64,000 bases of DNA from Candidatus Nealsonbacteria bacterium (GCA_026396115.1 JAPLXL010000005.1:2967-66966), one strand, 5' to 3'. Shown: positions 921 through 57,027, counted from the stretch's first letter. Notes: generated by a model not told the origin, from the letters alone. Numbers and translations: made by a program.

Positions 921-953
921 GGCGAAGAGAACTGCGTTCTCTTCTTTACCTTC
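921..953 (-). repeat. Hairpin repeat family copy (orientation B, truncated), intergenic
   Basis: ggcgaagagaactgcgttctcttctttaccttc. GAAGAGAAC/GTTCTCTTC stem. Confidence 0.8.
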
Positions 954-975
954 ATTTTTACTTCATAAAAATTCG

Positions 976-2115
976 GTGATTGATTTTAAAATTCTTAAAA
1001 AATCAAAAAAGAGCAAAGCGAGATTGGGATTGTTAAAAACAGGGAAAGGACTGGTTGAGACGCCTTGTTTTGTAGCCGTAGCCACCCAGGCAGTTGTAAA
1101 AACTTTGGATAGCCAAGAAGTTAAAGAAACCAAAAGCCAGATTTTAATTGTCAATACCTTTCACTTGCATTTGAAACCGGGGGAAGATGTGATTAAGAAA
1201 GCCGGTGGTCTTCATCAATTTATGAATTGGCAAAGACCTCTAATGACGGATTCTGGCGGTTTTCAGGTTTTTAGCTTGGGATTTGGCAAGGATTTTGGAA
1301 TGGGAAAAATTTTGAAAAAGAGAGTTGCTAATCAAAAGATTGAATATAGTCAGCAGCCAAAACTTTTAAAAATCACCCAAGATGGAGTTTATTTTCGTTC
1401 TTTTTTGGACGGCAAAAAAGTATTTTTGGGCCCCAAAGAATCAATTAAGATTCAGGAAAAATTAGGGGCAGATATTATTTTTGCTTTTGACGAATGCACT
1501 TCACCCATAGCCGATTACAAATACACTAAAAAATCTTTGGAAAGAACTCATCGATGGGCAAGAATTTGTTTAAAAGAGAAAAAGTCCAGTCAAGCTCTTT
1601 TTGGCATTGTCCAGGGCGGCAGATATAAGGACTTGAGAGTTGAAAGCGCCGGATTTTTGGGAGATTTGCCTTTTGACGGTTTTGGAATCGGCGGTGAATT
1701 CGGAGACAATAAAGAGAAAATGCTGGAAATGTTAAATTGGGTAATTAAAGAATTGCCGGAACAAAAACCCAGGCATCTTTTGGGAATCGGCTATTTGGAA
1801 GATATTCCCAGAATTATTGAAAGGGGAGCGGATTTATTTGACTGCAGCGTTCCCACTCATTATGCCAGGCGGGGGATTGCTTTTACATCTATGGGTAAAT
1901 TAGATTTAGGAAAAATTGAATTTTTGAAAGATAAATCTCCGCTTGATAAAAAATGTTCTTGTTTTGTCTGTCAAAATTATACCAGAAATTATATTTCCCA
2001 TCTTTTCCGGGCAAAAGAAATCACCGCTCTTAAATTATTAACCTTTCACAATCTTTATTTTTTTAACAGTTTTGTTGAAAAGATAAGAAAGAAAATAAAA
2101 GAGGGAAAAATATGA
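976..2115 (+). CDS. tgt: tRNA-guanine transglycosylase (queuine tRNA-ribosyltransferase)
   Basis: 379 aa. ARLGLLKTGKGLVETPCF N-terminus, MTDSGGFQVFSL, and a C-terminal Zn site C..CxxC..H pattern (CSCFVCQNYTRNYISHLF). Confidence 0.9.
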   Translation: MIDFKILKKSKKSKARLGLLKTGKGLVETPCFVAVATQAVVKTLDSQEVKETKSQILIVNTFHLHLKPGEDVIKKAGGLHQFMNWQRPLMTDSGGFQVFSLGFGKDFGMGKILKKRVANQKIEYSQQPKLLKITQDGVYFRSFLDGKKVFLGPKESIKIQEKLGADIIFAFDECTSPIADYKYTKKSLERTHRWARICLKEKKSSQALFGIVQGGRYKDLRVESAGFLGDLPFDGFGIGGEFGDNKEKMLEMLNWVIKELPEQKPRHLLGIGYLEDIPRIIERGADLFDCSVPTHYARRGIAFTSMGKLDLGKIEFLKDKSPLDKKCSCFVCQNYTRNYISHLFRAKEITALKLLTFHNLYFFNSFVEKIRKKIKEGKI

Positions 2116-2583
2116 AAAAACAATTAATATTTTTTAGAAACCGAGCTTCCGAAGGAAGCGAAGGTGAAGAAGAGAATGGAATTCTCTTCGCCAAATATAT
2201 TTTTTCTCTTTGGAAATTTATTTTAGCGGCTGTTTTGGTTTTTGTTTTTGCCGCTTTTAACGGTTATTTTTTTGCTCAAAACTCGCCTTTGGAAACGAAG
2301 CTGGTTTTGGAAAATCTTCAGGAAGTGCTTGGGCCCATAGTAGAGATGACGCCTTTTGGCCAGTTTTTATTTGTTGTTTTAAACTTCTGGCTTGCGCTAT
2401 TGGTTTAAAACTTGGAAAAACTCTACTTGATAGAGTTTTCAAAAACCGAGCCCCGCAAAAGCTTGGCGAAGCAGATATTAAAACAGAATTAAATACTGCT
2501 TTAGTTTTTTTTATAAAAGTTTTATTTCCTCTTTTGCTTTTGGCAGCTGCCGTTGAAATTTTCATCACCGGTCAGCTTTTGTA
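2112..2583 (+). pseudogene. SpoIIM-like membrane protein, apparently disrupted (frame change near 2405) with a repeat element in its N-terminus
   Basis: ORF 2112-2408 ends in LNFWLALLV*. The -1 frame from 2405 continues to ...LFPLLLLAAAVEIFITGQLL*, a SpoIIM-type C-terminus. The central TM region seems to be missing. Confidence 0.4.
2140..2192 (+). repeat. Hairpin repeat family copy (orientation A), in-frame in the N-terminus of the 2112 ORF
   Basis: accgagcttccgaaggaagcgaaggtgaagaagagaatggaattctcttcgcc, translated as RASEGSEGEEENGILFA. Confidence 0.85.
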
Positions 2584-2593
2584 GAAACAAAAC

Positions 2594-2622
2594 AAAAAAC
2601 CCGGCAAACGCCGGGTTTTTTG
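2594..2622. terminator. Bidirectional rho-independent terminator between convergent genes
   Basis: aaaaaaCCCGGCaaacGCCGGGtttttt. GC stem flanked by A-run and T-run. Confidence 0.8.
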
Positions 2623-2632
2623 TTTTTTAGGA

Positions 2633-2809: not shown

Positions 2810-2819
2810 GTTATTTATT

Positions 2820-2875
2820 GGCGAAGAGAACTTTGTTCTCTTCTTTACCTTCGCTTCCATAAATGGAAGCTCGGT
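2820..2875 (-). repeat. Hairpin repeat family copy (orientation B, full two-hairpin form)
   Basis: ggcgaagagaactttgttctcttctttaccttcgcttccataaatggaagctcggt. Confidence 0.85.
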
Positions 2876-3071
2876 TTTTGATGAATGAAAAGCGACCTTG
2901 AAACTCTAAGTCGCTACACTTAACTACTGCTAAGCTACTTCGACTTATTGTCTACTGCTGATTATATAGCATCCATAAACAATGTCAAGTCTTAGCTTGA
3001 CCATAATCTTCGACCATGGGAGTAGACAAGAGATCTCAAAAATGGCAAAATTAAACTAAGCTTTAAAAAAA

Positions 3072-3410: not shown

Positions 3411-3422
3411 ATCCTGCACCGA

Positions 3423-3613
3423 GGGCGAAGAAGATAAATCTTCTTCTTTACCCTTCGCTGCAGCTCGGGTGGGCGAAGAAGATAAATCTTCTTCTTTATC
3501 CTTCGCTGTAGCTCGGGTGGGCGAAGAAGATAAATCTTCTTCTTTACCCTTCGCTGTAGCTCGGGTGGGCGAAGAAAATAGATTTTCTTCTTCCCCCTCG
3601 CTCCGCTCGGGAG
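3423..3613 (-). repeat. Tandem array: 4 head-to-tail units (48-nt period) of the hairpin repeat family
   Basis: Units start at 3423, 3471, 3519 and 3567. Example: gggcgaagaagataaatcttcttctttacccttcgctgcagctcgggt. No spacers between units. Confidence 0.9.
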
Positions 3614-3633
3614 GGAGAAATTTAATTTTAGGG

Positions 3634-6710: not shown

Positions 6711-6754
6711 CGGAGACGGTTTTTTGGTAGAATAAAAAGGGCAGAATAATAATA

Positions 6755-6847
6755 GGCGAAGAGAACTTTGTTCTCTTCTTCACCTACCCGAGTCGCAACG
6801 ACGGGTGAAAAAGAGATTTATCTCTTTGATTCCTTCGAAAGCTCGGT
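6755..6847. repeat. Composite of hairpin repeat family units (B half + A unit + B tail) in the greA 5' region
   Basis: ggcgaagagaactttgttctcttcttcacct / acccgagtcgcaacgacgggtgaaaaagagatttatctctttgat / tccttcgaaagctcggt. Confidence 0.75.
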
Positions 6848-6882
6848 ATATGAAAAAAATTAATATTATGGAATGTAAAAAT

Positions 6883-9596: not shown

Positions 9597-10115
9597 ATGG
9601 CCAGAAAGAAATTGGTAAAAAAAGTCGTTATTGGCGGAACTTTTGATATTTTGCACAGGGGACACGAGGCATTATTAAAAAGGACTTTTAGTTTGGGGGA
9701 AACAACTATCGGATTAACTTCAAACAAAATGGCTGAAAAAATTAAAAGAAGAAGGGTTGGAAATTTTCGAAGCAGAAAAAAAGAATTGGAAAAATTTATA
9801 AAAGAATGGTTGCTGGGCAAATATAAAATAAAGAAAATTGAAGACAAATTCGGCCCCACTTTAAAAGAAGATTTTGATTATATTGTGGTTTCTCCGGAAA
9901 CTTACAAAACGGCCTTGCTCATCAACAAAAAACGCCGGGAAATAAAGAAAAAACCGATAAAAATTGTTAAAATAAAGTTTGTTTTGGGAGAAAACGGAAA
10001 ACCCATCAGCGCCACTCAAATAATAAAAGGCAAAATAGATAAACAGGGAAAATTAATTACCGAGTCACGCTTGCGGGACGAAGGTGAAGAAGAGAACGAA
10101 GTTCTCTTCGCCTAA
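9597..10115 (+). CDS. Cytidylyltransferase-family nucleotidyltransferase (archaeal-type PPAT-like)
   Basis: VVIGGTFDILHRGHEALL (HxGH). The start was moved to MARKK at 9597. The last ~18 aa and the stop lie inside a repeat element. Confidence 0.7.
   Translation: MARKKLVKKVVIGGTFDILHRGHEALLKRTFSLGETTIGLTSNKMAEKIKRRRVGNFRSRKKELEKFIKEWLLGKYKIKKIEDKFGPTLKEDFDYIVVSPETYKTALLINKKRREIKKKPIKIVKIKFVLGENGKPISATQIIKGKIDKQGKLITESRLRDEGEEENEVLFA
10059..10112 (+). repeat. Hairpin repeat family copy (A) forming the C-terminus of the 9597 CDS
   Basis: accgagtcacgcttgcgggacgaaggtgaagaagagaacgaagttctcttcgcc, translated as TESRLRDEGEEENEVLFA*. Confidence 0.85.
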
Positions 10116-11280: not shown

Positions 11281-11628
11281 ATGAAATATTCGCCAATCGT
11301 CGGTTGGATTCTATTGTTAGCGGGCATCGGCATTATTGGTTGGACACTGATTAATTCTTATAATATTTTCACTGCCAAAGCCGTGTTGCCCGAATTTTTT
11401 GAAGCACCGAAAGAAGAAGTTGTAACCAAAAAAGAAGGCGGCCAGGACATTCAGGTCCAGATGGAGCAGATGATAGGCGAGCAACTGAAAGGAATTTTGC
11501 CTGTTGATTTTATAACAAAACTTTTAAATTTAGTCGTCCGGTCAATACTGGCTTTTATTTTAATTTTCGGCGGCAGCCAAATTTCCGGCCTGGGCATAAA
11601 ATTGATTAAAAACCGAGTCCTGCAGTAA
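11281..11628 (+). CDS. Hypothetical membrane protein
   Basis: Two hydrophobic helices. The stop codon lies inside a repeat element. Confidence 0.5.
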   Translation: MKYSPIVGWILLLAGIGIIGWTLINSYNIFTAKAVLPEFFEAPKEEVVTKKEGGQDIQVQMEQMIGEQLKGILPVDFITKLLNLVVRSILAFILIFGGSQISGLGIKLIKNRVLQ

Positions 11629-11666
11629 CGGGACGAAGGTGGAAAAGAGGATAAAATCCTCTTTGA
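11612..11666 (+). repeat. Hairpin repeat family copy (A variant) bridging two genes
   Basis: accgagtcctgcagtaacgggacgaaggtggaaaagaggataaaatcctctttgac, immediately followed by ttATG (11670). Confidence 0.8.
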
Positions 11667-11669
11667 CTT

Positions 11670-12068: not shown

Positions 12069-12070
12069 TA

Positions 12071-12173
12071 ACCGAGCTTTCGCGCAGCGAAAGCGAATTC
12101 GAAGAACATTCGTTCTTCTCTACCCTTCGTTGCGACTCGGATAGGTGAAGAAGAAAACGAAGTTCTCTTTGAC
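12071..12173. repeat. ~100-nt composite multi-hairpin repeat module
   Basis: accgagctttcgcgcagcgaaagcgaattcgaagaacattcgttcttctctacccttcgttgcgactcggataggtgaagaagaaaacgaagttctctttgac. Near-identical modules lie at 18904 and 21922. Confidence 0.85.
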
Positions 12174-12175
12174 TT

Positions 12176-14770
12176 ATGGCAGATAAATTTAATTTTAATC
12201 TAAAAACAACAGCGATTTATCAGGCAGTAAAATGGGCAAAGAATCCTGTTTTTAAATTGGCAAAATCTTTAAGAAAGCTATTTTTGTTTTTATTTGTTTT
12301 AGTTTTTTTAATATTTATTTATGGGTTTTTAACCGATGCTATCAGTAAAAACGCCCAATCTTTAACCTTAGGATTATCAATAATTTTTCTTACCTTATTT
12401 TTAATTTTTCGGCTAATAGAATCTTTTTTTAATTCAAAAGTTAAAAACCCAAAATTAAACATACAAATTACCGAACTTGTTTCCAATTTAGAAAAGTTCA
12501 ATCTGGCAGATTTTTTAAGTTTTGAAGTTGCCAAAGCAGTTTCAGATTCTATAAAATTTTGCAAAAAAAGGAAAATTGCTGAAATCAGCTCAACTCTGCT
12601 TTTTTACTTTCTTATTTCCAATAATCAAAATTTAAATTTTATATTTTCTCGAGCCCTTTTAAGCGTTAAAGAAATTAAGAAATTTCTTGAAAACTATTTT
12701 AAAACCATAAGCTCCGAAGCCCAGCGAGAGAAGAGGACGAAGTCCTCTTCGAGCATGGTTTATTCGGAAGATTTTCAGTATTCAATTTTTGAATCTCTAA
12801 AAGTAGCCGAAAAAAAGAATCATTTAAGAATTGAAGCGGGAGACATAATTACCGGTCTTGCCAAACATGATTTAATTTTTAAAAAAATTTTAATTGATAA
12901 TAATCTGAAAGTTCAAGATATTGAAAATTTAAGCTGGTGGCTGGAAGATCTGGAAGAAAAAATAAAAGAAAGTAAAAAGTTCTGGGAATGGAAAAACTTA
13001 ATAAAAAGAGGTTCTTTAGGAAAAGAATGGACGGCCGGCTACACTCTTACCTTAGACCGGTTTTCAATTGATTTATCCGAGGTACTAAGGAAAAGAGGAT
13101 TCCCGGAAATTATCGGCCATCAAAAAGAAATTAGTGCCGTGGAAAGGATTTTATCCAGAAGAGAAATAAACAATGTTTTGATAGTTGGCGAAGCGGGCAG
13201 CGGCAGAAAAAGTATGGTTCATGCTTTGGCTAAAAAAAGCGTTTTGGGAGAAAGTTCAGCCGAAGTAAATTATAAAAGAGTTGTTCAATTGGACCTGACA
13301 AACCTTTTAGCCCAGATTTCATCTTTCGAAAAGGTAGAAGTAACTTTGGACAATATCTTTAGAGAAGTGATTTTGGCTGGCAACGTTATTTTGGTTATAG
13401 ACGAGTTTCACAATTTTATTAGCGGCGGCATCAGACCCGGGGTAATAGATATTTCCGGGGTTCTCGCTCCTTATTTGCCATATCCTACTTTTCAGATTGT
13501 AGCCATTACCACTTTTGAAGGTCTTCACAAAAATATTGAACTAAATCCTTCTATTTTATCTCTGTTTGAAAAAGTTGAAGTTGCTGAAGTTTCTGAAAGA
13601 GAGACATTAATGCTTTTGCAAAACCTGAGTTTAATATTGGAACAAAAATACAAAAAATTCGTTTCTTACCAATCCCTCAGAGATATTATTGTTTATTGTT
13701 CAAAGTATTTGCCGGCAATTCCTTTTCCCGAAAAAGCAATGGATTTGCTTGATGAGGTAATGGTTTACCTTAACCAAACCATTAAAGACAAAGTACTTTT
13801 ACCAAAACATATTGCTTATATTATTTCAGAGAAAACTCAAATTCCGATTGGAGAAATAGAAGAAAAAGAAAGACAGGTTTTGCTTAATTTGGAAAATTTA
13901 ATTCATGAGAGAATCATCAATCAGCAGGAAGCTGTTAAAGAGGTTTCCGCCGCCCTAAGAAGGGCCAGGGCAGAGGTTACCACAAGATCTGGCCCCATGG
14001 GAACTTTTTTGTTTTTGGGGCCAACCGGCGTTGGTAAAACCGAGACTTCCAAAGCTCTTGCCGAGATATACTTTGGTTCCGAAGATAGAATGATAAGGTT
14101 AGATATGTCAGAATTTCAAAGCGCTGCGGATATTCCTCATTTACTCGGAGCTCCGGGAGAAGAAGGACTTTTAACCACTGAGGTCAGAAAAAGACCGTTC
14201 TCTTTGATACTTTTAGATGAAATAGAAAAAGCCCATCCCAATGTCTTAAATTTATTTTTGCAAATACTGGACGAAGGACACGTAACGGACGGACTCGGCA
14301 GAAAAGTTGATTTTAAAAATTCGATAATCATTGCTACTTCTAATGCCGGTTATCAAATAATTTTGAAGGCCTTAAAAGAAAAAACCGAATGGTTTAAAGT
14401 TAAACAAAAACTTTTGGACCGTCTTTTTGAAGAAGGGATTTTCAGGCCGGAATTTATCAATCGATTTGATGCAATGGTGGTTTTCAAACCTTTAAGTAAA
14501 GAAAATCTTTTAGATATAGCCGATTTGATGCTCAAAAAATTAAAGAAAAACCTGAAAGAAAAAGAGATTGAGTTTGTTATCACCGAACCTCTCAAAGAAA
14601 GAATAGTTGAATTGGGTTATGACCCGACCTTCGGCGCAAGGCAGATGAGAAGAGTTATTCAAGACAAAATTGAAAATGTTTTAGCTTCTGCGCTTTTGTC
14701 CGGCGAAATCAAAAGGGGGTATAAAGTAGAAATAGATTCTGAAGATTTTAGATTAAAAATAATTCAATAA
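12176..14770 (+). CDS. ClpA/B/C-family double-AAA+ ATPase with N-terminal TM helices
   Basis: D1: IGHQKEISAVERIL..GEAGSGRKS (atypical Walker A) and VILVIDEFHNF. D2: GPTGVGKTE, LILLDEIEKAHP, GARQMRRVIQ. Hydrophobic aa ~35-80. Confidence 0.85.
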   Translation: MADKFNFNLKTTAIYQAVKWAKNPVFKLAKSLRKLFLFLFVLVFLIFIYGFLTDAISKNAQSLTLGLSIIFLTLFLIFRLIESFFNSKVKNPKLNIQITELVSNLEKFNLADFLSFEVAKAVSDSIKFCKKRKIAEISSTLLFYFLISNNQNLNFIFSRALLSVKEIKKFLENYFKTISSEAQREKRTKSSSSMVYSEDFQYSIFESLKVAEKKNHLRIEAGDIITGLAKHDLIFKKILIDNNLKVQDIENLSWWLEDLEEKIKESKKFWEWKNLIKRGSLGKEWTAGYTLTLDRFSIDLSEVLRKRGFPEIIGHQKEISAVERILSRREINNVLIVGEAGSGRKSMVHALAKKSVLGESSAEVNYKRVVQLDLTNLLAQISSFEKVEVTLDNIFREVILAGNVILVIDEFHNFISGGIRPGVIDISGVLAPYLPYPTFQIVAITTFEGLHKNIELNPSILSLFEKVEVAEVSERETLMLLQNLSLILEQKYKKFVSYQSLRDIIVYCSKYLPAIPFPEKAMDLLDEVMVYLNQTIKDKVLLPKHIAYIISEKTQIPIGEIEEKERQVLLNLENLIHERIINQQEAVKEVSAALRRARAEVTTRSGPMGTFLFLGPTGVGKTETSKALAEIYFGSEDRMIRLDMSEFQSAADIPHLLGAPGEEGLLTTEVRKRPFSLILLDEIEKAHPNVLNLFLQILDEGHVTDGLGRKVDFKNSIIIATSNAGYQIILKALKEKTEWFKVKQKLLDRLFEEGIFRPEFINRFDAMVVFKPLSKENLLDIADLMLKKLKKNLKEKEIEFVITEPLKERIVELGYDPTFGARQMRRVIQDKIENVLASALLSGEIKRGYKVEIDSEDFRLKIIQ
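12711..12754 (+). repeat. Hairpin repeat family copy (A-like) in-frame inside the ClpC-like CDS
   Basis: gctccgaagcccagcgagagaagaggacgaagtcctcttcgagc, translated as SSEAQREKRTKSSSSM. Confidence 0.7.
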
Positions 14771-15449: not shown

Positions 15450-16349
15450 ATGGTTCATATTCCCGTATTGCAAAAAGAGGTTCTCCAGTATCTTGAGCCA
15501 AAGCCGAATGAAAATTTTATTGATTGTACCATAGGAAAAGGAGGTCATGCCTTAGCTATCTTGGAAAAAAATGGTCCAAATGGAAAAGTATTAGGAATCG
15601 ATCAAGACCAGGAAATAATCCAATGTTTAAAAACCCGAGCCGCAGCGAAGGGTGAAGAAGAACGATTGATTCTGGTTTGTGATAATTTTGCTAACTTAGA
15701 GGAAATCGTTAAAAAACAAAATTTTAAAAAAATATCCGGAATTTTATTTGATTTGGGAATGTCAAGCTGGCATTTAGAAGAGTCGGGTCGGGGATTCAGT
15801 TTTTTAAGGAATGAACCATTAGACATGAGATACGATTTAAGAAATCCTTTGACAGCCGAAAAGATAATAAACTTTTGGTCAGAGCCGGATATAGAAAAAA
15901 TTTTAAAAGAATTTGGAGAAGAAAATTTTTCGGAAAAAATTGCCAAAACCATTATTAAAGAAAGAAAATTCGGCTCGATTAAAACAACTTTTCAATTAGT
16001 AAGAATCATTAAAAAAGCAGTTCCTTTAAGATATCAAGAGCAAAGATTACATTGTGCGACAAGAACATTTCAGGCAATAAGAATTGCGGTAAACGAAGAG
16101 TTAGAGAATTTGAGAAAAGTTCTTCCCCAGGCAGTAGAAATTTTGCCAGCCGAGGGAAAACTGATAGTTATTTCTTTTCATTCTTTGGAAGATAGAATTG
16201 TTAAAAATTTTTTTCGGGAAAAAGCCAGAGAAAATATTTTAAAAATAATAACCAAAAAACCGGTCAGTCCCGACTTAAAAGAAATTAAAATTAATACTCG
16301 GTCTCGGTCCGGTAAGCTGAGAACGGCAGTAAAAATATGTCTCAAATAA
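15450..16349 (+). CDS. rsmH: 16S rRNA (cytosine1402-N4)-methyltransferase RsmH
   Basis: HIPVL..EVL..L, DCTIGKGGHA, DLGMSS, ISFHSLEDRIVK. Confidence 0.95.
   Translation: MVHIPVLQKEVLQYLEPKPNENFIDCTIGKGGHALAILEKNGPNGKVLGIDQDQEIIQCLKTRAAAKGEEERLILVCDNFANLEEIVKKQNFKKISGILFDLGMSSWHLEESGRGFSFLRNEPLDMRYDLRNPLTAEKIINFWSEPDIEKILKEFGEENFSEKIAKTIIKERKFGSIKTTFQLVRIIKKAVPLRYQEQRLHCATRTFQAIRIAVNEELENLRKVLPQAVEILPAEGKLIVISFHSLEDRIVKNFFREKARENILKIITKKPVSPDLKEIKINTRSRSGKLRTAVKICLK
15633..15665 (+). repeat. Hairpin repeat family copy (A, 3' arm degenerate) in-frame inside rsmH
   Basis: acccgagccgcagcgaagggtgaagaagaacga, translated as TRAAAKGEEER. Confidence 0.65.
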
Positions 16350-16687: not shown

Positions 16688-18373
16688 ATGCTTCGTTGGA
16701 AAATCAATTTCATTTTAGTATTCTTGTTTCTTTTAGGAATGGTCATTTTGGGCCGGCTTTTTTATATTCAAGTCGTTAAGGCCGACTTTTACAAAGCTTT
16801 GGCTCAAGGATTATATAGTATTGATAAACAAATTATTGGAGAAAGAGGAGAGATTTTTTTTAAAAACGGGGAAGCTTTAGCCATAAACATGGATTGGTCC
16901 TTGGTTTTTTCCTCACCAATAGAAGTTAAAGAAAAAGAGATTGCCGCCGAAAAATTAGCCGAAATTCTTTCTTTGGGCGAAGAGAATAAATCCTCTTCTT
17001 CCCCCTTCTCTACGGCTCAGGTAGCTAAAGATTTTATTTTGGAAAAATTAGAAAAAAACAATTTATATGAACCCATTAAAAAAAGAATAACTGATGAGGA
17101 AATTCAAAAAATAAAAGAACTAAACCTAAAAGGAATTTATCTGGACAGGGAAAAGGGAAGATACTATCCCCAAGGAACCTTTGCTTCCCAGTTAATCGGT
17201 TTTGTGGACGCCGACCGGCAAGGACAATATGGCATAGAAGGTTATGACGATGAGATTTTGCGGGGTAAAAAAGACCAACGAGGCAAAGATATTTTTTTAA
17301 CTATTGATTACTCCATTCAATTCAGAGCCGAAAAACTTTTAGAACAGGCAAAAGAAAATTTGGAGATTGAGGGCGGAGAAATTATAGTTATGAATCCTGA
17401 TTCCGGAGAAATTTTAGCCTTAGCGAATTTTCCGAACTTTAATCCCAATCAATATTCAGCGGTTTCTGATTTTGAAATTTTTGAAAATGGGGCGACCCAA
17501 AAAATTTTTGAGCCGGGTTCTATTTTCAAACCCATAACTATGGCTGCTGCTTTGAACGAGGAAAAAATCACTCCTCAAACCACTTATCTGGATAAAGGAA
17601 TATTGATGATAGGCGGCTGGCCAATTTCTAACTACGATAACAGAATTCATGGAGAACAAACTATGACTAATGTTTTAGAAAAATCAATTAATACCGGAGC
17701 AGTTTTTGTTGAAGAAAAGCTCGGGCATAATTCCTTTTTGAGGTACTTGGATAAATTCGGTTTTTTTAAACTGACCGGAATCGATCTCCAGGAAGTTTAT
17801 TCTGAAAATAGGGAGTTTAAAAAAGGATATGAAATAAATTTTGTCACGGCCAGTTTTGGCCAGGGAATAGAAATGACGCCAATCCAGTTAATCAGAGCTT
17901 ATAGCGTCATTGCTAATGGTGGAAAACTGGTAAAACCTTATCTGGTTAAGAAAATTATAAATGGCGAGGAGGTTTTGGGTGGCGAAGAGGATAAATCCTC
18001 TTCTTCACCCTTCGCTGCGACTCGGGTAATAGAAGACGATTTGGTAATTTCTCAAAAAACCGCCTCTCAATTAACAGCTATGCTGGTCAGCGTAGTTGAA
18101 AATGGTCCCTATACAAAGGGGGCTAGAATCCCTGGCTATTGGGTTGCAGGTAAAACAGGTACTGCCCAGGTACCAGAAAAAGGAACATATTCATCCGACA
18201 AAACCTGGCAATCGTTTGTAGGATTTGTCCCGGCTTTTAATCCTGAATTTGTAGTTTTAGTAAAACTTGATAATCCGAAGACGAAAACTGCTGAATATTC
18301 GGCAGTTCCTATTTTCCAGGATTTGGCAAAATATATCGTTGATTATTATCAAATACCGCCGGACCATGAATAA
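16688..18373 (+). CDS. ftsI: Penicillin-binding protein 2/FtsI-type transpeptidase
   Basis: N-terminal TM, dimerisation domain, SIFKP (SxxK), SIN (SxN), KTGTA (KTG). Confidence 0.9.
   Translation: MLRWKINFILVFLFLLGMVILGRLFYIQVVKADFYKALAQGLYSIDKQIIGERGEIFFKNGEALAINMDWSLVFSSPIEVKEKEIAAEKLAEILSLGEENKSSSSPFSTAQVAKDFILEKLEKNNLYEPIKKRITDEEIQKIKELNLKGIYLDREKGRYYPQGTFASQLIGFVDADRQGQYGIEGYDDEILRGKKDQRGKDIFLTIDYSIQFRAEKLLEQAKENLEIEGGEIIVMNPDSGEILALANFPNFNPNQYSAVSDFEIFENGATQKIFEPGSIFKPITMAAALNEEKITPQTTYLDKGILMIGGWPISNYDNRIHGEQTMTNVLEKSINTGAVFVEEKLGHNSFLRYLDKFGFFKLTGIDLQEVYSENREFKKGYEINFVTASFGQGIEMTPIQLIRAYSVIANGGKLVKPYLVKKIINGEEVLGGEEDKSSSSPFAATRVIEDDLVISQKTASQLTAMLVSVVENGPYTKGARIPGYWVAGKTGTAQVPEKGTYSSDKTWQSFVGFVPAFNPEFVVLVKLDNPKTKTAEYSAVPIFQDLAKYIVDYYQIPPDHE
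16975..17022 (-). repeat. Hairpin repeat family copy (B, 48 nt) in-frame inside ftsI
   Basis: gggcgaagagaataaatcctcttcttcccccttctctacggctcaggt, translated as GEENKSSSSPFSTAQV. Confidence 0.85.
17980..18027 (-). repeat. Hairpin repeat family copy (B, 48 nt) in-frame inside ftsI
   Basis: tggcgaagaggataaatcctcttcttcacccttcgctgcgactcgggt, translated as GEEDKSSSSPFAATRV. Confidence 0.85.
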
Positions 18374-18920
18374 AATTAAATTTTTTTTAAGAAAGCCAAA
18401 GGTGGTGATTGTTATTGGGGAGAGAAAAAAAATGGTAAAAGAAGCCATTTTTCAGGTTTTGAAGCAATATTCTAAAATTGACAAAGATGTCTTGATTCTT
18501 GAAACAGAAGAAAAAAAAATTAATAAATTTGCTTTTTATTTAAAAAACTCTAAATTGCCGATTTTAGTAATAGCTGGCATTAATGATATCTATTTAGTTA
18601 AAAATCTGCCTGTTAACACTCATTTTGTTTTAAATTACGACGATGAAAAACTAAAAGAAGAAATTAATAACCTTGATAATTTTAAAACCATGAAATTTGG
18701 CTTTAAAGAAGAAAATGATATTTTTGTCTCCGATCTCAAAGAAAACGGCGGGACAAATTTCAAGGTAAATTATAATGGAAAAAGTGTGCCATTTTGGCTG
18801 AATGGACTTCTTGACCAAGAGCAAATTTACGCCATCCTGGCCGCAATCAGCGTTGGCACAATTCTTGGCTTAAACCTGGTGGAAATTTCCCAATCCTTCA
18901 AATACCGAGCTTTCGCGTAG
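18366..18920 (+). CDS. Short, degenerate Mur-ligase-like protein (MurF-like central region, no P-loop)
   Basis: KVVIVIGERKKM sits where GTNGKT is expected. NFKVNYNGKSVPFWLNGLLDQEQIYAILAAISVG resembles the MurF central domain. Only 184 aa, and the stop lies inside a repeat. Confidence 0.4.
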   Translation: MNKIKFFLRKPKVVIVIGERKKMVKEAIFQVLKQYSKIDKDVLILETEEKKINKFAFYLKNSKLPILVIAGINDIYLVKNLPVNTHFVLNYDDEKLKEEINNLDNFKTMKFGFKEENDIFVSDLKENGGTNFKVNYNGKSVPFWLNGLLDQEQIYAILAAISVGTILGLNLVEISQSFKYRAFA

Positions 18921-19005
18921 CGAAAGCGAAAGTAAGAAAGAGGGCGAAGAAAAGCGTTTCTTCTTCCGTCTCGTCTTCGACTCGACGAACGAAGCTCTCT
19001 TCGCC
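18904..19005. repeat. ~100-nt composite multi-hairpin repeat module
   Basis: accgagctttcgcgtagcgaaagcgaaagtaagaaagagggcgaagaaaagcgtttcttcttccgtctcgtcttcgactcgacgaacgaagctctcttcgcc. Confidence 0.8.
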
Positions 19006-19052
19006 TATTTTTGTTTATTTTTTGATTTTGTGATAAATTAAAACTTGCCACT

Positions 19053-21921: not shown

Positions 21922-22023
21922 ACCGAGCTTTCACGCAGTGAGGGCGAATCGAAGAACATTCGTTCTTCTCTACCCTTCGCTGCGACTCGGGTAGGTGAAG
22001 AAGAGGGCGAAACCCTCTTCGCC
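21922..22023. repeat. ~100-nt composite multi-hairpin repeat module in the 5' UTR of the ATPase gene
   Basis: accgagctttcacgcagtgagggcgaatcgaagaacattcgttcttctctacccttcgctgcgactcgggtaggtgaagaagagggcgaaaccctcttcgcc. Confidence 0.85.
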
Positions 22024-22037
22024 TAAATATACTGATT

Positions 22038-31952: not shown

Positions 31953-31960
31953 TGAAATAA

Positions 31961-32010
31961 GTCGAAGAGATAAATCTCTTCTTCATCTTTGCTTCCTTCG
32001 GAAGCTCGAT
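31961..32010 (-). repeat. Hairpin repeat family copy (B) upstream of dnaB
   Basis: gtcgaagagataaatctcttcttcatctttgcttccttcggaagctcgat. Confidence 0.8.
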
Positions 32011-32015
32011 AATTA

Positions 32016-51461: not shown

Positions 51462-52259
51462 ATGTTGACTCTCTCGGGTTTAAAAAAAGAATTAAAAGCC
51501 AAAGCCAGTCCCAAAAAGGCGAAGATCCTGCAAAGATTCTTTAAAACAGGTCCCGGAGAATACGGCTATGGTGATGTTTTTTTAGGCGTGGTGGTTCCGG
51601 AAACAAGGAAAGTAGCCAAGAAATACAGCACTCTTAAAGTGGCAGATGCGGTAAAATTATTGCATTCCAAAATCCATGAAGAAAGATTAGCTGCTCTTTT
51701 AATTATGGTTGATAAATTTCAAGCTCCCGAGCAACAGCGAAGTCGAAAAAGGATTTCATCCTCTTTCTTACCTTCGCTTCCTTCGAAAGCTCGGTGGGGG
51801 AAGAAGAAAGTTTACTTTCTTCGCCCCGGAAACGAACAAGAAATAATTTATAAAACATATTTGAAAAACACAAAATACATAAATAATTGGGATTTGGTGG
51901 ATTTGTCGGCTGAAAAAATAGTAGGGGATTATCTTTTTGATAAACCGAAAGAAATTCTTTACAAATTAGCTAAATCAAAAAGCGTTTGGGAAAGAAGAAT
52001 AGCCATTATAGCAACTTTTAACTTTATTAAAAACAATAAGTTTGAAGAAACTTTTAAAATTTCTAAAATTCTTTTAAATGATGAACATGATTTAATCCAT
52101 AAAGCGGTTGGTTGGATGTTAAGAGAGGTTGGCAAGAGAGATATTAAAACAGAAAAAGATTTTCTTGATAAATATTCTAAAAAAATGGCTAGAACTACGT
52201 TTCGCTATGCCATTGAGAGATTTCCGGAAAAAAATATGTTAATTAAAAAGAAAAAATAA
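51462..52259 (+). CDS. DNA alkylation repair protein (AlkD-like HEAT-repeat family) carrying a ~33-aa repeat-derived insertion
   Basis: KAKILQRFFKTGPGEYGYGDVFLGV, NNWDLVD, HDLIHKAVGWMLRE. Confidence 0.75.
   Translation: MLTLSGLKKELKAKASPKKAKILQRFFKTGPGEYGYGDVFLGVVVPETRKVAKKYSTLKVADAVKLLHSKIHEERLAALLIMVDKFQAPEQQRSRKRISSSFLPSLPSKARWGKKKVYFLRPGNEQEIIYKTYLKNTKYINNWDLVDLSAEKIVGDYLFDKPKEILYKLAKSKSVWERRIAIIATFNFIKNNKFEETFKISKILLNDEHDLIHKAVGWMLREVGKRDIKTEKDFLDKYSKKMARTTFRYAIERFPEKNMLIKKKK
51725..51825. repeat. ~100-nt composite hairpin repeat module inserted in-frame in the AlkD-like CDS
   Basis: ctcccgagcaacagcgaagtcgaaaaaggatttcatcctctttcttaccttcgcttccttcgaaagctcggtgggggaagaagaaagtttactttcttcgcc, translated as APEQQRSRKRISSSFLPSLPSKARWGKKKVYFLRPG. 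Confidence 0.8.
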
Positions 52260-52289: not shown

Positions 52290-52309
52290 CATAAACTTAA
52301 CTATTAAAT

Positions 52310-52660: not shown

Positions 52661-52709
52661 CCTCCCTTTAAAATAAAAATTTTATAAAGAACTACTAGAT
52701 TGAAATGTT

Positions 52710-52738: not shown

Positions 52739-52825
52739 GTTTTCTTATTTTGACAAGAGAAACGTTTAAGTTAAGAGAATCCGAAAACAGAAAAAGAAAA
52801 TAGAGCTGACACCTATTTTCTTTAC

Positions 52826-52864
52826 TAAAAATCCTCTTATCTCTACAAAAGAAATAAGAGGATT
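52826..52864 (-). terminator. Rho-independent terminator of plsC
   Basis: AATCCTCTTAT...ATAAGAGGATT 11-bp stem with a T-run on the minus strand. Confidence 0.75.
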
Positions 52865-53598: not shown

Positions 53599-53748
53599 CT
53601 CCTGAAAGAATTAATTGTTGATTGATAAATATACAATTAAATATGCTAAATGTCAATCGGGTTTTTAATTTGAGTTATTTTTAGCTATAATAAAAGAAAC
53701 TAAGACCAAAGGAAAAATGGTGTCAACTCTGATTCTTTAAAGCAAAAT

Positions 53749-54264
53749 ATGAAAAAAACTATTAAGAAAATTTTAAAAGTAAAACCATTCCAGGAGACAT
53801 TAAATAGTAGTTACTGCGGTCCGGCATCGCTAAAAATAGTATTAGATTATTACGGAATCAAGAAAACAGAAAAAGAATTAGCTAAAATGACTGGCTGGAA
53901 TAAGGATTTGGGAGTAGACGATAAAGGGATCAAAAAAGCAGCGGAAGCGTTGGGTTTTAAGGTAAAAATAAAAAATAATAGCAATTATTCAGATATCCAA
54001 AAATGGCTGGACAAAAGAGTTCCGGTTATTGTTGATTGGTTTACAAGGGGCAGAAATGATTGTACTGATTCTGATATTCCGGACGGCCATTCTTCTGTTG
54101 TGGCAGGACTTGATAATAAATTTATTTATCTTCAAGATCCTGAAATAGGGAAGATAAGAAAATTAAACAGGGAAGACTTTATGACAGTTTGGTTTGATTT
54201 CAGGGGTAAATATATAAAACCTAATGGATTAGTCATCAGACAGATTATCGCGATATATAAATAA
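53749..54264 (+). CDS. C39-like cysteine peptidase domain protein
   Basis: SYCGPASLKIVLDYYG (catalytic Cys context), DGHSSVV, YLQDP. Confidence 0.6.
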   Translation: MKKTIKKILKVKPFQETLNSSYCGPASLKIVLDYYGIKKTEKELAKMTGWNKDLGVDDKGIKKAAEALGFKVKIKNNSNYSDIQKWLDKRVPVIVDWFTRGRNDCTDSDIPDGHSSVVAGLDNKFIYLQDPEIGKIRKLNREDFMTVWFDFRGKYIKPNGLVIRQIIAIYK

Positions 54265-54273
54265 TATATATTT

Positions 54274-55527
54274 ATGGAAGAAGAATATCAACAAAAATCT
54301 GAGAAAATTTTCTCCGTTTCGGAGTTTATAACGCTTCTGAATATAGGACTTAATAAGTCCCAAGTTAAAATGATTGGAGAAGTAAGCGAGGCAAAGATCA
54401 ATTCGTCTGGCCATGTTTATTTTGTGTTAAAAGATAAAAAAGATGGAAGCGTAATAAATTGTGCAATCTGGAAACATAGATATGCGATATATGGAATCAA
54501 GTTGAAGGAGGGAATGGAGATTATTGTTTTTGGCCACCCCAATATACATAAAACTTATGGATTTTCTTTTATAGTCGAAACGGTTGAGTTGGCCGGGGAG
54601 GGAGCTTTAAAAAAAGAATACGAGAGATTGAAAAAGAAACTGACAGAAGAAGGGCTTTTTGCCGAGGAAAGAAAAAAACTGATTCCAAAATATTGCCGCA
54701 AGGTGGGTCTGATTACCTCAAAACAGGGTGCGGCTCTGGGGGATTTTTTAAGCAATTTGGGAAAATACGGATTTCAGATAAAAATGATTGATTCACGCGT
54801 TGAGGGGCAGGAAGCAGTTACCGAACTTTTGCGCTCAATAAAGACATTCAGAAATCAGGATATAGATGTTTTAGCCATAATCCGCGGGGGAGGATCGGCT
54901 GAATCTTTGGAAGTATTCAATAATGAATTGCTGGTCAGGGAGGTGGCAAAATTTCCGGTTCCGGTAATCGCGGGCATTGGACACGACAAAGACGAGCCGT
55001 TGGTTGCCTTGGCGGCCGACGCTTCGGAATCCACTCCTACTGCCGTTGCCAACCTGCTTAATGAATCATGGGAAGAAGCCCTCCTGCGTTTGGAGAGATA
55101 TGAGAGGGGAATTTTGGGATACTTTGAGGAAATTTTTGAAAAATATAGAAACGCAGAGCGCTCATTAATGATTTCTTTTGGGAACTTTAAAAATGCTTTA
55201 TTAAATGTTAAAATGAATTTAAGAAATTCGGTTAATAAATCTCTTTCTGGATTTAAATCATTATTATCAAAAATTAATCAGCAGCTGGAACACGCTGAAA
55301 AAGTAGTTAATCTTAATAATCCGGTGCGGCAATTAATGCTCGGTTACAGTATTGCCAGATGTCATGGCAGAATAATTAGAACCGTGAAAAATACCAAAAT
55401 AGGGGACAATATAGACATTCAAGTAATTGATGGAAAAATTAATTCGGAGGCGAAGAGAATTTCATTCTCTTCTTCACCTTCGCCCCTCCTCCAAAAAAGG
55501 GGCTCGGTAAGTAAAAAATATAAGTAA
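54274..55527 (+). CDS. xseA: Exodeoxyribonuclease VII large subunit
   Basis: OB-fold N-terminus (VSEFITLLN...GEVSE...SGHVYFVLKD), RGGGS, GIGHD. The C-terminal ~25 aa are repeat-derived. Confidence 0.9.
   Translation: MEEEYQQKSEKIFSVSEFITLLNIGLNKSQVKMIGEVSEAKINSSGHVYFVLKDKKDGSVINCAIWKHRYAIYGIKLKEGMEIIVFGHPNIHKTYGFSFIVETVELAGEGALKKEYERLKKKLTEEGLFAEERKKLIPKYCRKVGLITSKQGAALGDFLSNLGKYGFQIKMIDSRVEGQEAVTELLRSIKTFRNQDIDVLAIIRGGGSAESLEVFNNELLVREVAKFPVPVIAGIGHDKDEPLVALAADASESTPTAVANLLNESWEEALLRLERYERGILGYFEEIFEKYRNAERSLMISFGNFKNALLNVKMNLRNSVNKSLSGFKSLLSKINQQLEHAEKVVNLNNPVRQLMLGYSIARCHGRIIRTVKNTKIGDNIDIQVIDGKINSEAKRISFSSSPSPLLQKRGSVSKKYK
55449..55508 (-). repeat. Hairpin repeat family copy (B) forming the XseA C-terminus
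   Basis: ggcgaagagaatttcattctcttcttcaccttcgcccctcctccaaaaaaggggctcggt, translated as EAKRISFSSSPSPLLQKRGSV. Confidence 0.8.
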
Positions 55528-55553
55528 AAAAATATAGCGAAGAATTAAAAATT

Positions 55554-55787
55554 ATGGCAAAAGAAAAACCAGACACAAAAAATTTAAATAATAGTCTTAA
55601 ACGTCTATTTGAAATTACCGAATGGTTTGACAACCAGGAAGAAATTGATGTTGAAGAAGGATTAAAAAAGGTAAAAGAAGCGGCAGAGCTTATTAAAGCC
55701 AGCAAAGAACGACTTAAAACTGTTGAAAATGAGTTTGAGGAAATCAAAAAAGAAATAGATATTGAGGAGGAAAAAGAACAAATATGA
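55554..55787 (+). CDS. xseB: Exodeoxyribonuclease VII small subunit
   Basis: 77 aa, helical, directly downstream of xseA. LKRLFEITEWFDN...EEGLKKVKEAAELIK. Confidence 0.8.
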   Translation: MAKEKPDTKNLNNSLKRLFEITEWFDNQEEIDVEEGLKKVKEAAELIKASKERLKTVENEFEEIKKEIDIEEEKEQI

Positions 55788-55924
55788 GAAAATCGAGAAA
55801 GTATTCGACAAAAAAAGTTCTTAGTAAGAAGATATTTTTTCCTCAGATAACCAAATTCAGGGTGAGAAGCGTAGCGGCGAGATTGGAACATCGAAGAGTG
55901 GAAGGAAAAAGAAATAAATAAAAG

Positions 55925-55964
55925 GGATCGCCCCGCTTACATCGGGACGATTTTTTAGTATAAT
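55925..55964 (+). promoter_or_regulatory. Hairpin plus T-run fused to TATAAT; rlmN ATG 7 nt downstream (leaderless candidate)
   Basis: gatCGCCCCGcttacatCGGGACGattttttagTATAAT, then tttcact, then ATG (55972). Confidence 0.55.
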
Positions 55965-55971
55965 TTTCACT

Positions 55972-57027
55972 ATGGATTTAATACAATTTCAAAAATTATT
56001 TAAGAAAGAACCAAGATATCGTTCGGAGCAAGCTAAAAGATCCCTTTTCCGGGATTTAATTCAAAACTGGCAGGAAGCGGTGACCCTACCCTTAAGTTTA
56101 AGAGAAGAATTAAATAAAAAATGTCCGATTGAAATATCGGCAAAAACATTTTTTTCTAAAGACAAAAATACAATAAAAGCTCTTCTTACTCTAAAAGATG
56201 GTCTGAAAATTGAAACAGTTTTGATGCGTCATAAAGATAAAAGAAATACCATTTGCGTTTCTTCTCAGGTTGGTTGTCCTCTGAAGTGTTCTTTTTGTGC
56301 CACAGGAAAGATAGGATTTGAAAGAAACCTAGAGATTTGGGAAATTGTTGAACAAGTTTTATTTTTCGCCCGTTATTTGAAAAAAATTAAAGAGACGGTC
56401 AGTAATATTGTCTTTATGGGAATGGGAGAGCCATTTTTAAATTATCAGAATGTAATAGGGGCAATAAAAATCTTGAACGATAGAGATGGATTTAATTTAG
56501 GAGCAAGGCATTTTTCAATCTCTACTGTTGGAATTGTTGAGGGAGGGATTGAAGAATTAGCCAAAGAAAAATTACAGATAAATTTAGCTATTTCTCTTCA
56601 TGCGCCAAATGACGAACTCCGTTCAAAATTGATGCCGATTAACAAAAAATATCCTATCAAGAAGATTTTAAATGCGGTAGACGACTACATTAAGAAGACT
56701 CGGCGGCGGGTAATGTTTGAGTATATAATGATAAAGAATTTAAATGATTCTGAAGAACACGCTCAAACATTAGCCGGGTTGATGAAAAAACCTCTTTATT
56801 TTGTTAATCTAATTTCTTATAACCCAACTGGAATTTTTAAACCTTCCTCCTCCCGAGCAACAGCGAAGGGGGAAGAAGAAAATCTATTTTCTTCGCCCTC
56901 TTTAAGAATTAAAAAATTTAAAGAAATCTTAGAAAAAGAGGGTGTGATGGTTACCCAGAGATATCGTTTTGGCGAAGATATTGAGGCTGCTTGTGGCCAA
57001 CTGGTGGCTAAAGATGGGAGAAAATAA
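55972..57027 (+). CDS. rlmN: 23S rRNA/tRNA adenine-C2 methyltransferase RlmN (radical SAM)
   Basis: CVSSQVGCPLKCSFCATG, GMGEPFLNY, C-terminal ...AACGQL. Confidence 0.9.
   Translation: MDLIQFQKLFKKEPRYRSEQAKRSLFRDLIQNWQEAVTLPLSLREELNKKCPIEISAKTFFSKDKNTIKALLTLKDGLKIETVLMRHKDKRNTICVSSQVGCPLKCSFCATGKIGFERNLEIWEIVEQVLFFARYLKKIKETVSNIVFMGMGEPFLNYQNVIGAIKILNDRDGFNLGARHFSISTVGIVEGGIEELAKEKLQINLAISLHAPNDELRSKLMPINKKYPIKKILNAVDDYIKKTRRRVMFEYIMIKNLNDSEEHAQTLAGLMKKPLYFVNLISYNPTGIFKPSSSRATAKGEEENLFSSPSLRIKKFKEILEKEGVMVTQRYRFGEDIEAACGQLVAKDGRK
56851..56897 (+). repeat. Hairpin repeat family copy (A) in-frame inside rlmN
   Basis: tcccgagcaacagcgaagggggaagaagaaaatctattttcttcgcc, translated as SRATAKGEEENLFSSP. 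Confidence 0.8.

Follow-up and report, generated by a model that had tools for sequence, protein, structure and literature searches.

Probable small mobile elements with two hairpins in intergenic spacers and genes of Candidatus Nealsonbacteria and other Patescibacteria

Genomes of the Candidate Phyla Radiation (CPR, Patescibacteria) are viewed as streamlined, with little mobile DNA. Among the closest described counterparts of the repeats reported here, one comes from another reduced genome: Rickettsia palindromic elements (RPEs) are selfish palindromic repeats that lie in frame in housekeeping genes and are translated (PMC10969869). Here we describe a dense family of two-hairpin units in a 64,000-nucleotide stretch of DNA from a Candidatus Nealsonbacteria bacterium (GCA_026396115.1, JAPLXL010000005.1:2967-66966; hereafter the window, meaning the whole stretch that was analyzed). 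We consider it probable that these units are tiny, non-autonomous, target-specific mobile DNA elements that are mobilized in trans and occur in many CPR/Patescibacteria genomes.

The family is evident from simple motif counts, with 11 occurrences of GAAGAAGAG in the window where 0.85 are expected and 10 occurrences of the paired motif AAGAAGAG-N7-10-CTCTTCGCC where 100 shuffles predict 0.00, and a repeat search of the window placed the copies in many overlapping direct and inverted repeat families. An earlier note on this DNA had reported at least 20 copies of a dense, structured repeat and had proposed scanning with a covariance model (CM). Such a model, built on nine long units and run over the window with filters off, gave approximately 28 units at 20 sites, together approximately 1.4 kb or 2.2% of the window, confined to positions 919-32011 and 51725-56899. 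It recovered all of the sites that the note had listed, with E<0.01 and two qualifications: at 12711 the match is restricted to the second hairpin (12729-12750), and 15633 scored E=0.6 because it is a half copy. The extents as matched include 3422-3614, 12070-12175, 16974-17022, 17979-18028, 18903-18987, 21946-22025, 29498-29544 and 51725-51827. The three weaker relatives suggested in the note found no support from the CM, with E=1.6 for 2429-2506 (the relative at 2445-2472), E=3.8 for 42836-42919 (the relative at 42913-42942) and zero matches at 30365-30404 in recR.

We give practically no credence to the reading that there is no real element here and that the pattern reflects GAA/CTT codon bias, selection for a peptide motif or faulty assembly. 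The core of the unit is purine-rich and resembles Glu and Lys codons, and metagenome assemblies can mis-join repeats, but the motif counts are far above those of shuffled sequence, the unit boundaries are conserved, the helices covary, and half of the copies are intergenic, with the family as a whole using five frames, both orientations and unrelated peptides. Moreover, assemblies produced independently of one another (JGI, ENA and NCBI) contain the same family, as do the genome of a single cell (Ca. Paceibacter normanii) and the closed chromosome of a Nealsonbacteria genome (CP179888.1), which excludes an assembly artefact. The codon-bias and artefact readings, both of which the earlier note had itself raised, are refuted, and the dense two-hairpin repeat family is confirmed as real.

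The units are 45-63 nt long and follow the layout (A/T)CC-GAG-hairpin 1-CGAA-GGT-GAA-hairpin 2-GCC(T), in which hairpin 2 has the conserved form GAAGAGnnn-loop-nnnCTCTTC and the unpaired GAG, CGAA, GAA and GCC(T) are also conserved. Hairpin 1 is closed by an ACC/GGT helix and is otherwise free in sequence while its pairing is kept. Two subfamilies can be distinguished, long units (L-type, 54-63 nt) with a true 6-bp stem in hairpin 1, such as GCTTCC/GGAAGC, GTCCCG/CGGGAC or GCCCCT/AGGGGC, and short units (S-type, 48 nt) with the sequence ACCCGAGCnGCAGCGAAGGGTGAAGAAGAGGATTTATCCTCTTCGCCC; a 15-nt core, GAAGGTGAAGAAGAG, is conserved across lineages. The ends of a unit are asymmetric, with ACCGAG at the 5' end and CTCTTCGCCT at the 3' end, and are not inverted copies of one another. 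The ACCCGAG/CTCGGGT termini that the note had read as short terminal inverted repeats do not belong to single units, and appear inverted because units lie opposed in orientation or nested in each other. On sequence evidence we rejected terminal inverted repeats, duplication of TA and a resemblance to integron attC sites.

Single units are predicted to form the two-hairpin fold at -17 to -22 kcal/mol (z -2.2 to -3.8 in the sense orientation), and the complementary strand folds about as well. Across 52 aligned units, drawn from the window and approximately 25 other Patescibacteria contigs, 97.1% of the cells at paired positions are paired, vs. 83.4% after column shuffling and 45-58% when the partners are slid, and 15 of the 18 pairs show double-sided changes (146 cells); none of 500 shuffles reached the observed values. 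The alignment used for these counts was fitted to the CM, which favors structure, but the margin is still large and compensatory variants are visible by eye. Together with the fold z-scores, the compensatory changes that the note had proposed to look for support the stems it described. G-U pairs are few, so the pair data do not discriminate between a fold that acts at the DNA level and one that acts at the RNA level.

Comparison with close strains demonstrates that individual units come and go. We compared the window with a JGI contig (L001) that is 95-97% identical and syntenic with positions 9.5-30 kb, and with an NCBI contig (L003) that is ~95% identical; in global alignments almost all long indels are units, and strains at ~95-96% identity differ by clean presence or absence of 45-106 nt at more than 12 sites. 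Relative to L001 there are six blocks found only in the window and three found only in L001 (21-106 nt, all matching units), and L003 adds five more. Blocks restricted to the window include 57 nt at 11613-11669, 106 nt at 12069-12174, 48 nt at the first of two sites in an FtsI/PBP2-like penicillin-binding protein (PBP) gene, the unit at the second PBP site and the composite at 18904-19018, and the 54-nt unit of a P-type ATPase gene is shared by the window and L001 and missing from L003. Blocks restricted to a relative include 57 nt in NadD (L001), 45 nt in RsmH (L003) and 48 nt in a Mur-ligase-like open reading frame (ORF; L003). At a class IV aminotransferase gene (window position 19425) L003 has 51 extra nucleotides and L001 a 93-nt composite, and at the 3' end of the Mur-ligase-like ORF the copy in L003 is a simple unit that does not contain the 45-nt inner one, while in L001 the element is missing altogether. 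Sites that are filled or empty at 95-96% identity imply that individual copies are dispensable, and the empty sites that the note had proposed to seek in relatives are thus present in both contigs.

Three states are seen at one site in RsmH, which is empty in L003, filled by a full 48-nt unit in L001 (8904-8951) and filled by half a unit in the window, where a 42-nt deletion between GAAGA repeats has removed the remainder together with 18 native bases. A similar 48-nt deletion is seen at PBP site 2 in L003, and these two cases indicate that copies decay by microhomology deletion. Among PBP homologs at 75-89% identity, six carry the site-1 insertion while closer ones lack it, and one homolog (in L118) carries a head-to-tail dimer there.

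The insertions follow a strict rule that the earlier note had overlooked. Clean filled/empty pairs (11613, 12069, the 48-nt unit in RsmH, the 45-nt unit of L003 and the 54-nt unit in the ATPase) give no consistent sign of a duplication of at least 2 bp, so that the target-site duplications suggested as a check are lacking and the units are not classical miniature transposable elements with inverted repeats (MITEs). The ten bases upstream of the unit ACC, tallied for 49 long and 21 short units, reveal instead a T at -6 in 45 of the 49 long units (p=2e-19) and in all 21 short ones, or 66 of 70 together; among the long units a pyrimidine follows at -5 in 48 of 49 (C in 37, T in 11), A stands at -4 in 36, and positions -3 to -1 are A/T-rich. 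All 26 window units tallied have T-Y at -6/-5. In most empty alleles that can be read cleanly the T-Y-N4 bases are native sequence, which identifies them as a target that lies outside the element.

In register, the heptamer at the target, TTC(A/G)NNN^, matches the sequence with which the element itself ends at its 3' side, TTCGCC(T/C)^. A target that mimics the element's own end explains the head-to-tail arrays, both at 3423-3614 and in the PBP dimer of L118. Similarly, the reverse complement of the internal GGTGAA is TTCACC, so units land after TTCACCT and give nested composites of opposite orientation; such composites follow TTCACCT at 6755, 12071 and 21922, and TTCCCCC at 51725. In a CPR metagenome-assembled genome (JAUSLA01; L089 7142-7244 and L110 41-142) short units are nested in the hairpin 1 loop of long units, not at the TTCACC site, yet with T-C kept at -6/-5.

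The target bears directly on whether a dedicated DNA transposase is needed at all. Spread through an RNA intermediate, or by template switching or microhomology-mediated repair, has been put forward for the double-hairpin elements of Allomyces mitochondria (PMC2800124). Such a route would fit the lack of flanking duplications, the failure to find a transposase in the window or in searches of 1.06 Mb of related DNA, the several insertions with microhomology between target and element ends or with a few native bases replaced, and the clearly microhomology-driven decay. However, the register of the target is fixed, with T at -6 in nearly all of the units tallied, and exact 57- and 48-nt insertions occur at sites free of homology (11613, 12069, RsmH), both of which point to enzymatic site selection, and no reverse transcriptase was found among the ORFs of the window. 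We judge this route to be quite improbable.

The equal orientations of the units, their abundance in coding as well as non-coding DNA, their tolerated frames and the cross-lineage conservation of the core would also suit a DNA-uptake or recombination-drive signal sweeping through competent CPR cells in the manner of DUS/USS sequences, and the patchy occurrence of the PBP site-1 insertion relative to protein similarity suggests allele exchange by recombination. Known uptake sequences, however, arise by point mutation and not as blocks of 45-106 nt, and a signal of this kind gives no account of new sites, the T-Y-N4 target, nesting and tandem arrays or covariation of the hairpins. An uptake signal is in our view very improbable.

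About half of the sites in the window lie in frame inside conserved protein-coding genes, a feature that the earlier note had also overlooked. By Pfam, the unit-bearing ORFs are intact conserved genes, namely those for the ClpB-like protein, RsmH, FtsI/PBP2 (with two units), the P-type ATPase and the AlkD-like protein, and in NadD, RmuC, XseA, a radical-SAM enzyme and the Mur-ligase-like ORF a unit makes up the C-terminal tail. The encoded peptides vary with frame and orientation (e.g., GEENKSSSSPF, TRAAAKGEEE, IELPQEAKIKKRINSSSP and AKRISFSSSPSP), which indicates that the repeat is a nucleotide element and not a protein motif. Where solved homologs could be aligned (RsmH structures, and SpoVD 7rcz for both PBP sites), the insertions fall in alignment gaps. 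These alignments were used in place of an AlphaFold model of the PBP, whose mean pLDDT of 50.7 on a 21-sequence alignment was too poor, and the alignment for AlkD was too weak for use.

To place the window in a wider setting, we sampled 1.06 Mb of related CPR DNA, selected with a strict pattern scan of metagenome contigs and an nhmmer profile, which holds 309 non-redundant units. The scan of 596 Gb of contigs with AAGAAGAG-N7-10-CTCTTCGCC gave 114 loci, mostly due to chance, so that only Patescibacteria genomes with multiple hits are informative; full-length matches in the contig scan are restricted to Patescibacteria loci, and the strict pattern found no matches in viral contigs. Of the 309 units in this sample, 123 (40%) fall within stretches of 150 or more codons that contain no stop. 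Five of the six frames of a unit have no stop and encode mostly hydrophilic peptides of Glu, Lys, Ser and Pro. Among intragenic units the sense frames f1 and f0 are used 34 and 23 times and f2, which reads GG-TGA, is never used; the antisense frames are used 35, 10 and 8 times, and hydrophilic frames are preferred. Orientation is unbiased, with 57 units sense and 53 antisense. Because only insertions that keep the frame open survive, the units are argued to be translated rather than removed, and intragenic units would be read through as extra loops or tails, giving junction peptides that contain EAKVKKRTESSSP, GSEGEEENEVLFA or RAKRTLFSSSPSF.

The invaded genes are diverse. In addition to those of the window, units occur in CPR genes for Mur ligase, UvrC and methionine aminopeptidase and in ribosomal-protein operons, and the families invaded in the 1.06 Mb include class I aminoacyl-tRNA synthetases, glycosyltransferases, TatD, DnaX and ThrRS. 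On the closed chromosome CP179888.1 a single UvrA ORF of 1043 codons (L041 4773-7904) contains three in-frame units, at 6519, 7033 and 7278, which add ~60 residues.

This distribution also bears on whether the units are cis-acting structures kept by selection, similar to REP/BIME sequences in stabilizing or processing mRNA, binding proteins or helping initiation, with their spread being secondary. Counting for such functions, compensatory change keeps the hairpins paired across distant CPR lineages, many intergenic copies lie exactly between a stop codon and the next start codon, one unit stands between a perfect promoter and its gene, and the conserved centre AGGTGA is complementary to the 3' end of 16S rRNA. 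Yet units occur in both orientations relative to genes (57:53), the two-fifths of them that lie in coding sequence are hard to reconcile with such roles, and the same site can be filled or empty at 95-96% strain identity. The units also lack the T-run of an intrinsic terminator, a separate family of hairpins with T-runs that look like intrinsic terminators is present, and there are no relevant matches in Rfam: the search that the note had proposed, run on the window, returned two tRNAs at the gathering threshold and nothing relevant up to E=1. We therefore regard a cis-acting origin as improbable, and secondary co-option as possible. One specific version, in which a unit serves as a source of Shine-Dalgarno sequence by placing AGGTGA near a start via hairpin 2, was rejected as a general account since units abut starts in both orientations; tight gene packing explains why they abut start codons.

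In the mechanism that we favor, a structure- and sequence-specific enzyme would mobilize the units in trans, and new copies would insert exactly four nucleotides past a T-pyrimidine, at TTC(A/G)NNN^, without terminal inverted repeats or duplication. A head-to-tail array would result when a copy lands behind an existing one, and a nested inverted composite when it lands at the TTCACCT that an existing copy carries on its opposite strand. Insertions that are a multiple of three would survive inside genes and be translated as loops or tails, others would survive in the gaps of a few nucleotides between tightly packed genes, and copies would then decay by microhomology deletion between GAAGA-type repeats. 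Choice of a site at a fixed distance, a motif that mimics one element end and the lack of both terminal inverted repeats and target-site duplications follow the logic of single-strand HUH transposition (IS200/IS605, RAYT). The best precedent would be a transposase of the single-strand HUH (Y1) class, as in IS200/IS605-RAYT, and, provided that the units are mobile elements moved in trans, we put it forward tentatively, as a candidate that may well prove wrong. It is unlikely, though worth stating, that the units form a phylum-wide class moved by an enzyme outside the known transposase families, which might be a nuclease or recombinase with a housekeeping role in the host, or else an unrecognized HUH-like protein, and which would read the two-hairpin DNA fold and the TTCRNNN heptamer; in that case, the element would be a standing generator of variation in the surface loops and C-terminal tails of essential proteins in ultra-small bacteria.

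Several observations weigh against mobilization in trans by such an enzyme. A Pfam search of essentially all ORFs in the window agrees with the earlier note that no transposase is visible there, and it found no recombinase or reverse transcriptase either. When 2272 ORFs from the 1.06 Mb were clustered, only housekeeping families emerged and no recurrent transposase-like cluster; a phmmer search of the same ORFs with E. coli RayT gave a best E of 0.05, and a crude scan for the HUH motif gave no match, these being insensitive searches of element-rich DNA and not of whole genomes. The hairpins of a unit do not resemble one another, in contrast to the similar hairpins at IS200/IS605 ends, and the lack of orientation bias (57:53) is at odds with the strand bias of IS608-type elements; both count against a transposase of this kind. 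Some coding insertions are not clean, with a few native nucleotides replaced or with microhomology to the element ends, which leaves room for a recombination or template-switch route, and we infer read-through of intragenic units from intact frames.

The copies in the window are given in Table 1.

Table 1. Units of the two-hairpin family in the window, numbered from its first nucleotide (CM, covariance model; D and I, direct and inverted repeat families).
Copy	Position	Strand	Evidence
L-type, AT-rich hairpin 1	919..978	-	CM 59.7 bits, E=2.8e-15
L-type, in frame near N-terminus of ORF 2112-2408	2139..2194	+	CM 78.6 bits
L-type, in leader of small minus-strand zinc-ribbon ORF (~2630-2810)	2818..2876	-	CM 76.5 bits
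Four S-type units, head-to-tail, 48-nt period, intergenic	3423..3614	-	Repeat families D1, D4
Composite: outer L-type (-) with S-type (+) 6786-6832 inside	6753..6858	-	CM
L-type, C-terminal end of NadD-like ORF 9543-10115	10058..10114	+	CM 73.4 bits
L-type, clean 57-nt insertion	11611..11669	+	CM 67.6 bits; absent from L001
Composite: outer L-type, inverted S-type 12098-12146	12069..12175	+	CM; absent from L001
Degenerate copy, in frame in ClpB-like ORF, residues ~179-200	12711..12774	+	CM 25.6 bits
Half S-type unit, in frame in RsmH (TRAAAKGEEER)	15633..15665	+	Comparison with L001, L003
S-type, in frame, FtsI/PBP2-like gene site 1 (GEENKSSSSPFSTAQVA)	16975..17022	-	Absent from L001
S-type, in frame, FtsI/PBP2-like gene site 2 (GGEEDKSSSSPFAATRV)	17980..18027	-	Absent from L001; mostly deleted in L003
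Degenerate composite, 3' end of Mur-ligase-like ORF	18903..19006	+	CM 18903-18971(+), 18941-18987(-)
Composite: outer L-type, inverted S-type 21949-21996	21922..22025	+	CM 21947-22025(+), 21946-21993(-); family D16
L-type, in frame, nucleotide-binding domain of P-type ATPase (IELPQEAKIKKRINSSSP)	23384..23439	+	CM 70.5 bits; Pfam
S-type, C-terminal tail of RmuC	29498..29546	-	CM 20.6 bits, E=4e-4
L-type, between CysS stop and DnaB start, both genes on minus strand	31959..32011	-	CM 60 bits; Pfam
Composite: outer S-type, inverted L-type 51741-51796, in frame in AlkD-like DNA glycosylase	51725..51830	+	CM
L-type, C-terminal tail of XseA	55447..55509	-	CM 71 bits
S-type, in frame in radical-SAM ORF, residues 294-309 (SRATAKGEEENLFSSP)	56851..56899	+	CM 31.4 bits

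Several of these copies occupy nearly the whole space between neighboring genes. The first unit fills the spacer from an acylphosphatase ORF (589-909) to a TGT ORF (976-2115), both assigned by Pfam, and has the target tcaatc upstream. The unit at 11611 separates two ORFs that overlap (ATGA) in L001, in a block 96.7% identical to that contig, and the composite at 12069 is a 106-nt insertion that lies between the stop of ORF 11670-12068 and the start codon (ATG) of the ClpB-like gene and shares 87% identity with the composite at 21949-22024 (family D16). The composite at 6753 lies directly upstream of the likely GreA start; its inner unit follows the TTCACCT of the outer unit (flank tcacct), and the CM reports it as 6753-6807(-) and 6785-6832(+) and also as a single match at 6753-6848. 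The composite at 18903 is just upstream of a tRNA-Glu gene (19053), and that at 21922 is 12 nt upstream of the P-type ATPase start. In the tandem array the CM matches are 3422-3471, 3472-3517, 3518-3567 and 3568-3612, and each unit comes after the TTCGCCC end of the preceding one; its 3567-3614 unit is 85% identical to the unit in RmuC (family D4), and 32 nt of the unit at 56851 are 100% complementary to 3567-3598 (family I24).

Among the copies within genes, the unit at 2139 encodes NRASEGSEGEEENGILFA and has a predicted two-hairpin fold of -22.2 kcal/mol (z=-3.6). The NadD-like ORF takes its final 19 codons (TESRLRDEGEEENEVLFA*) from the unit at 10058, and its Pfam CTP_transf_like match stops at residue 162. 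The degenerate copy at 12711 is covered by the CM at model positions 31-52, with hairpin 2 at 12729-12750, and corresponds to a 21-nt difference from L001. The composite at 51725 adds ~35 residues to the AlkD-like protein, whose Pfam DNA_alkylation match spans 248 residues compared with a 213-position profile.

Two of the table entries have neighbors of some interest. The membrane-protein ORF that starts at 2112 and contains a unit in frame ends at 2408 and apparently resumes in another frame to ~2585; the unsupported relative at 2445-2472 falls in the second part. The 2112-2585 region may represent a gene with a frameshift or a copy that has decayed. The unit at 2818 sits downstream of a sigma-70-like promoter with 12/12 matches in a promoter scan (minus strand, 2988-2961), which points at this unit and the small CxxC zinc-ribbon ORF. 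The 180 nt upstream (window 2880-3060) contain no ORF and no Rfam match, and might hold an unannotated RNA.

The window and related loci contain other repeats. A second, unrelated family, AAAAATCGCCAAGAAGGCGGTTTTTTGGTAGAAT, consists of a short GC hairpin with a T-run followed by a TGnTAgAAT extended -10-like box and occurs at 35402-35446, 41810, 42267, 44975, 46304, 47182, 51420, 57026 and 59524 (families D3, D7 and D13), concentrated in the half of the window without two-hairpin units; from its sequence it looks like a conserved intergenic terminator-promoter cassette. AT-rich repeats of the CAATGAAT/ATTCATTG type form a 44-nt inverted pair, 91% complementary, at 28453-28510 and 32011-32054, which flanks the RmuC-L21-RecR-DnaB block where the sign of the GC skew switches; at 28478-28510 the copy number differs by 33 nt between the window and L001, and similar attcattttcaatgaat strings flank units in other CPR loci. 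Two large ORFs of 455 and 852 aa at 35826-39793, with Kelch-like and CarboxypepD_reg/SdrD_B domains, contain a coding repeat with a period of 153-156 nt and also have in common a 151-nt segment duplicated at 97% identity (36010 and 37036). Elsewhere, a LAGLIDADG-type ORF lies beside apparent rRNA sequence (L071 3044-5960) and is unrelated to the two-hairpin family; rRNA introns are known in CPR, and this ORF is consistent with such introns.

Taken together, approximately 2% of a 64 kb stretch consists of a single family of ~50 nt that turns over between strains at 95-96% identity, while the essential genes that host units, including those for the cell-division PBP, the ClpB-like protein, RsmH, UvrA, tRNA synthetases and others, remain unbroken. 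The family would be a second large and independent case, after the RPEs, of selfish DNA translated in proteins, making the generality of the phenomenon testable, and would account for many insertions of low complexity that are specific to single lineages of CPR proteins and might otherwise be mistaken for functional domains or alignment noise. The target rule and the two-hairpin fold provide a handle for finding the mobilizing enzyme, and the presence/absence sites are usable as strain markers in metagenomes.

Among known systems, the RPEs are likewise hairpin-forming palindromes found in frame in unrelated genes as well as between genes, with no associated transposase (PMC10969869). They are, however, ~100-150 bp long and restricted to Rickettsia, whereas the CPR units are 45-63 nt, have two hairpins and a T-Y-N4 target, form tandem and nested arrays and occur in Patescibacteria; the two are set apart here by these described features. 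REP, BIME and REPIN sequences resemble the CPR units in being short, abundant hairpin repeats without terminal inverted repeats or target-site duplications, present in both orientations and in inverted clusters, and in both structure outweighs most of the sequence. REPs are, in contrast, extragenic imperfect palindromes of 20-40 nt, have a GTAG-type tetranucleotide and are associated with a RAYT gene, while 40% of the CPR units are intragenic; GTAG is missing from the unit alignment, and no RAYT gene was found in the window or the 1.06 Mb (best RayT E=0.05 in an insensitive search).

IS200/IS605 and PATE elements similarly lack terminal inverted repeats and target-site duplications, have subterminal hairpins, and insert 3' of a short specific target that is similar to the cleavage site at their right end. 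In IS200/IS605, however, the left and right hairpins are alike, the target abuts the left end and insertion is strand-biased, whereas the CPR units have a variable hairpin 1 unlike hairpin 2, a T-Y located 4 nt from the junction, no orientation bias relative to genes and no TnpA seen in our insensitive searches. The mitochondrial double-hairpin elements of Allomyces, the mitochondrial GC clusters of yeast and the repetitive hairpin elements of sponges are likewise tiny hairpin repeats in compact AT-rich genomes, with a G+C content above that of the host, tandem arrays at preferred targets and occasional coding locations, and the Allomyces elements also lack flanking duplications (PMC2800124). 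These belong to organelle genomes, have unrelated sequence and rarely invade protein genes.

The note had called the repeats MITE/REP-like, and this label stands insofar as they are small, dense, structured and non-autonomous. Classical MITEs (Correia/NEMIS, ERIC, RUP and BOX) share the non-autonomy, abundance and structure, and some form in-frame fusions, but they derive from DDE insertion sequences and have the terminal inverted repeats and target-site duplications (e.g., TA) that the CPR units lack. Our literature search, which was incomplete and gives absence of evidence only, turned up no report from CPR/Patescibacteria of elements that resemble MITEs, REPs or RPEs. We classify the two-hairpin units as a new family among the small non-autonomous hairpin mobile elements, set apart most clearly by a strict target that mimics the element's own 3' end and by pervasive in-frame colonization of essential genes across the phylum.

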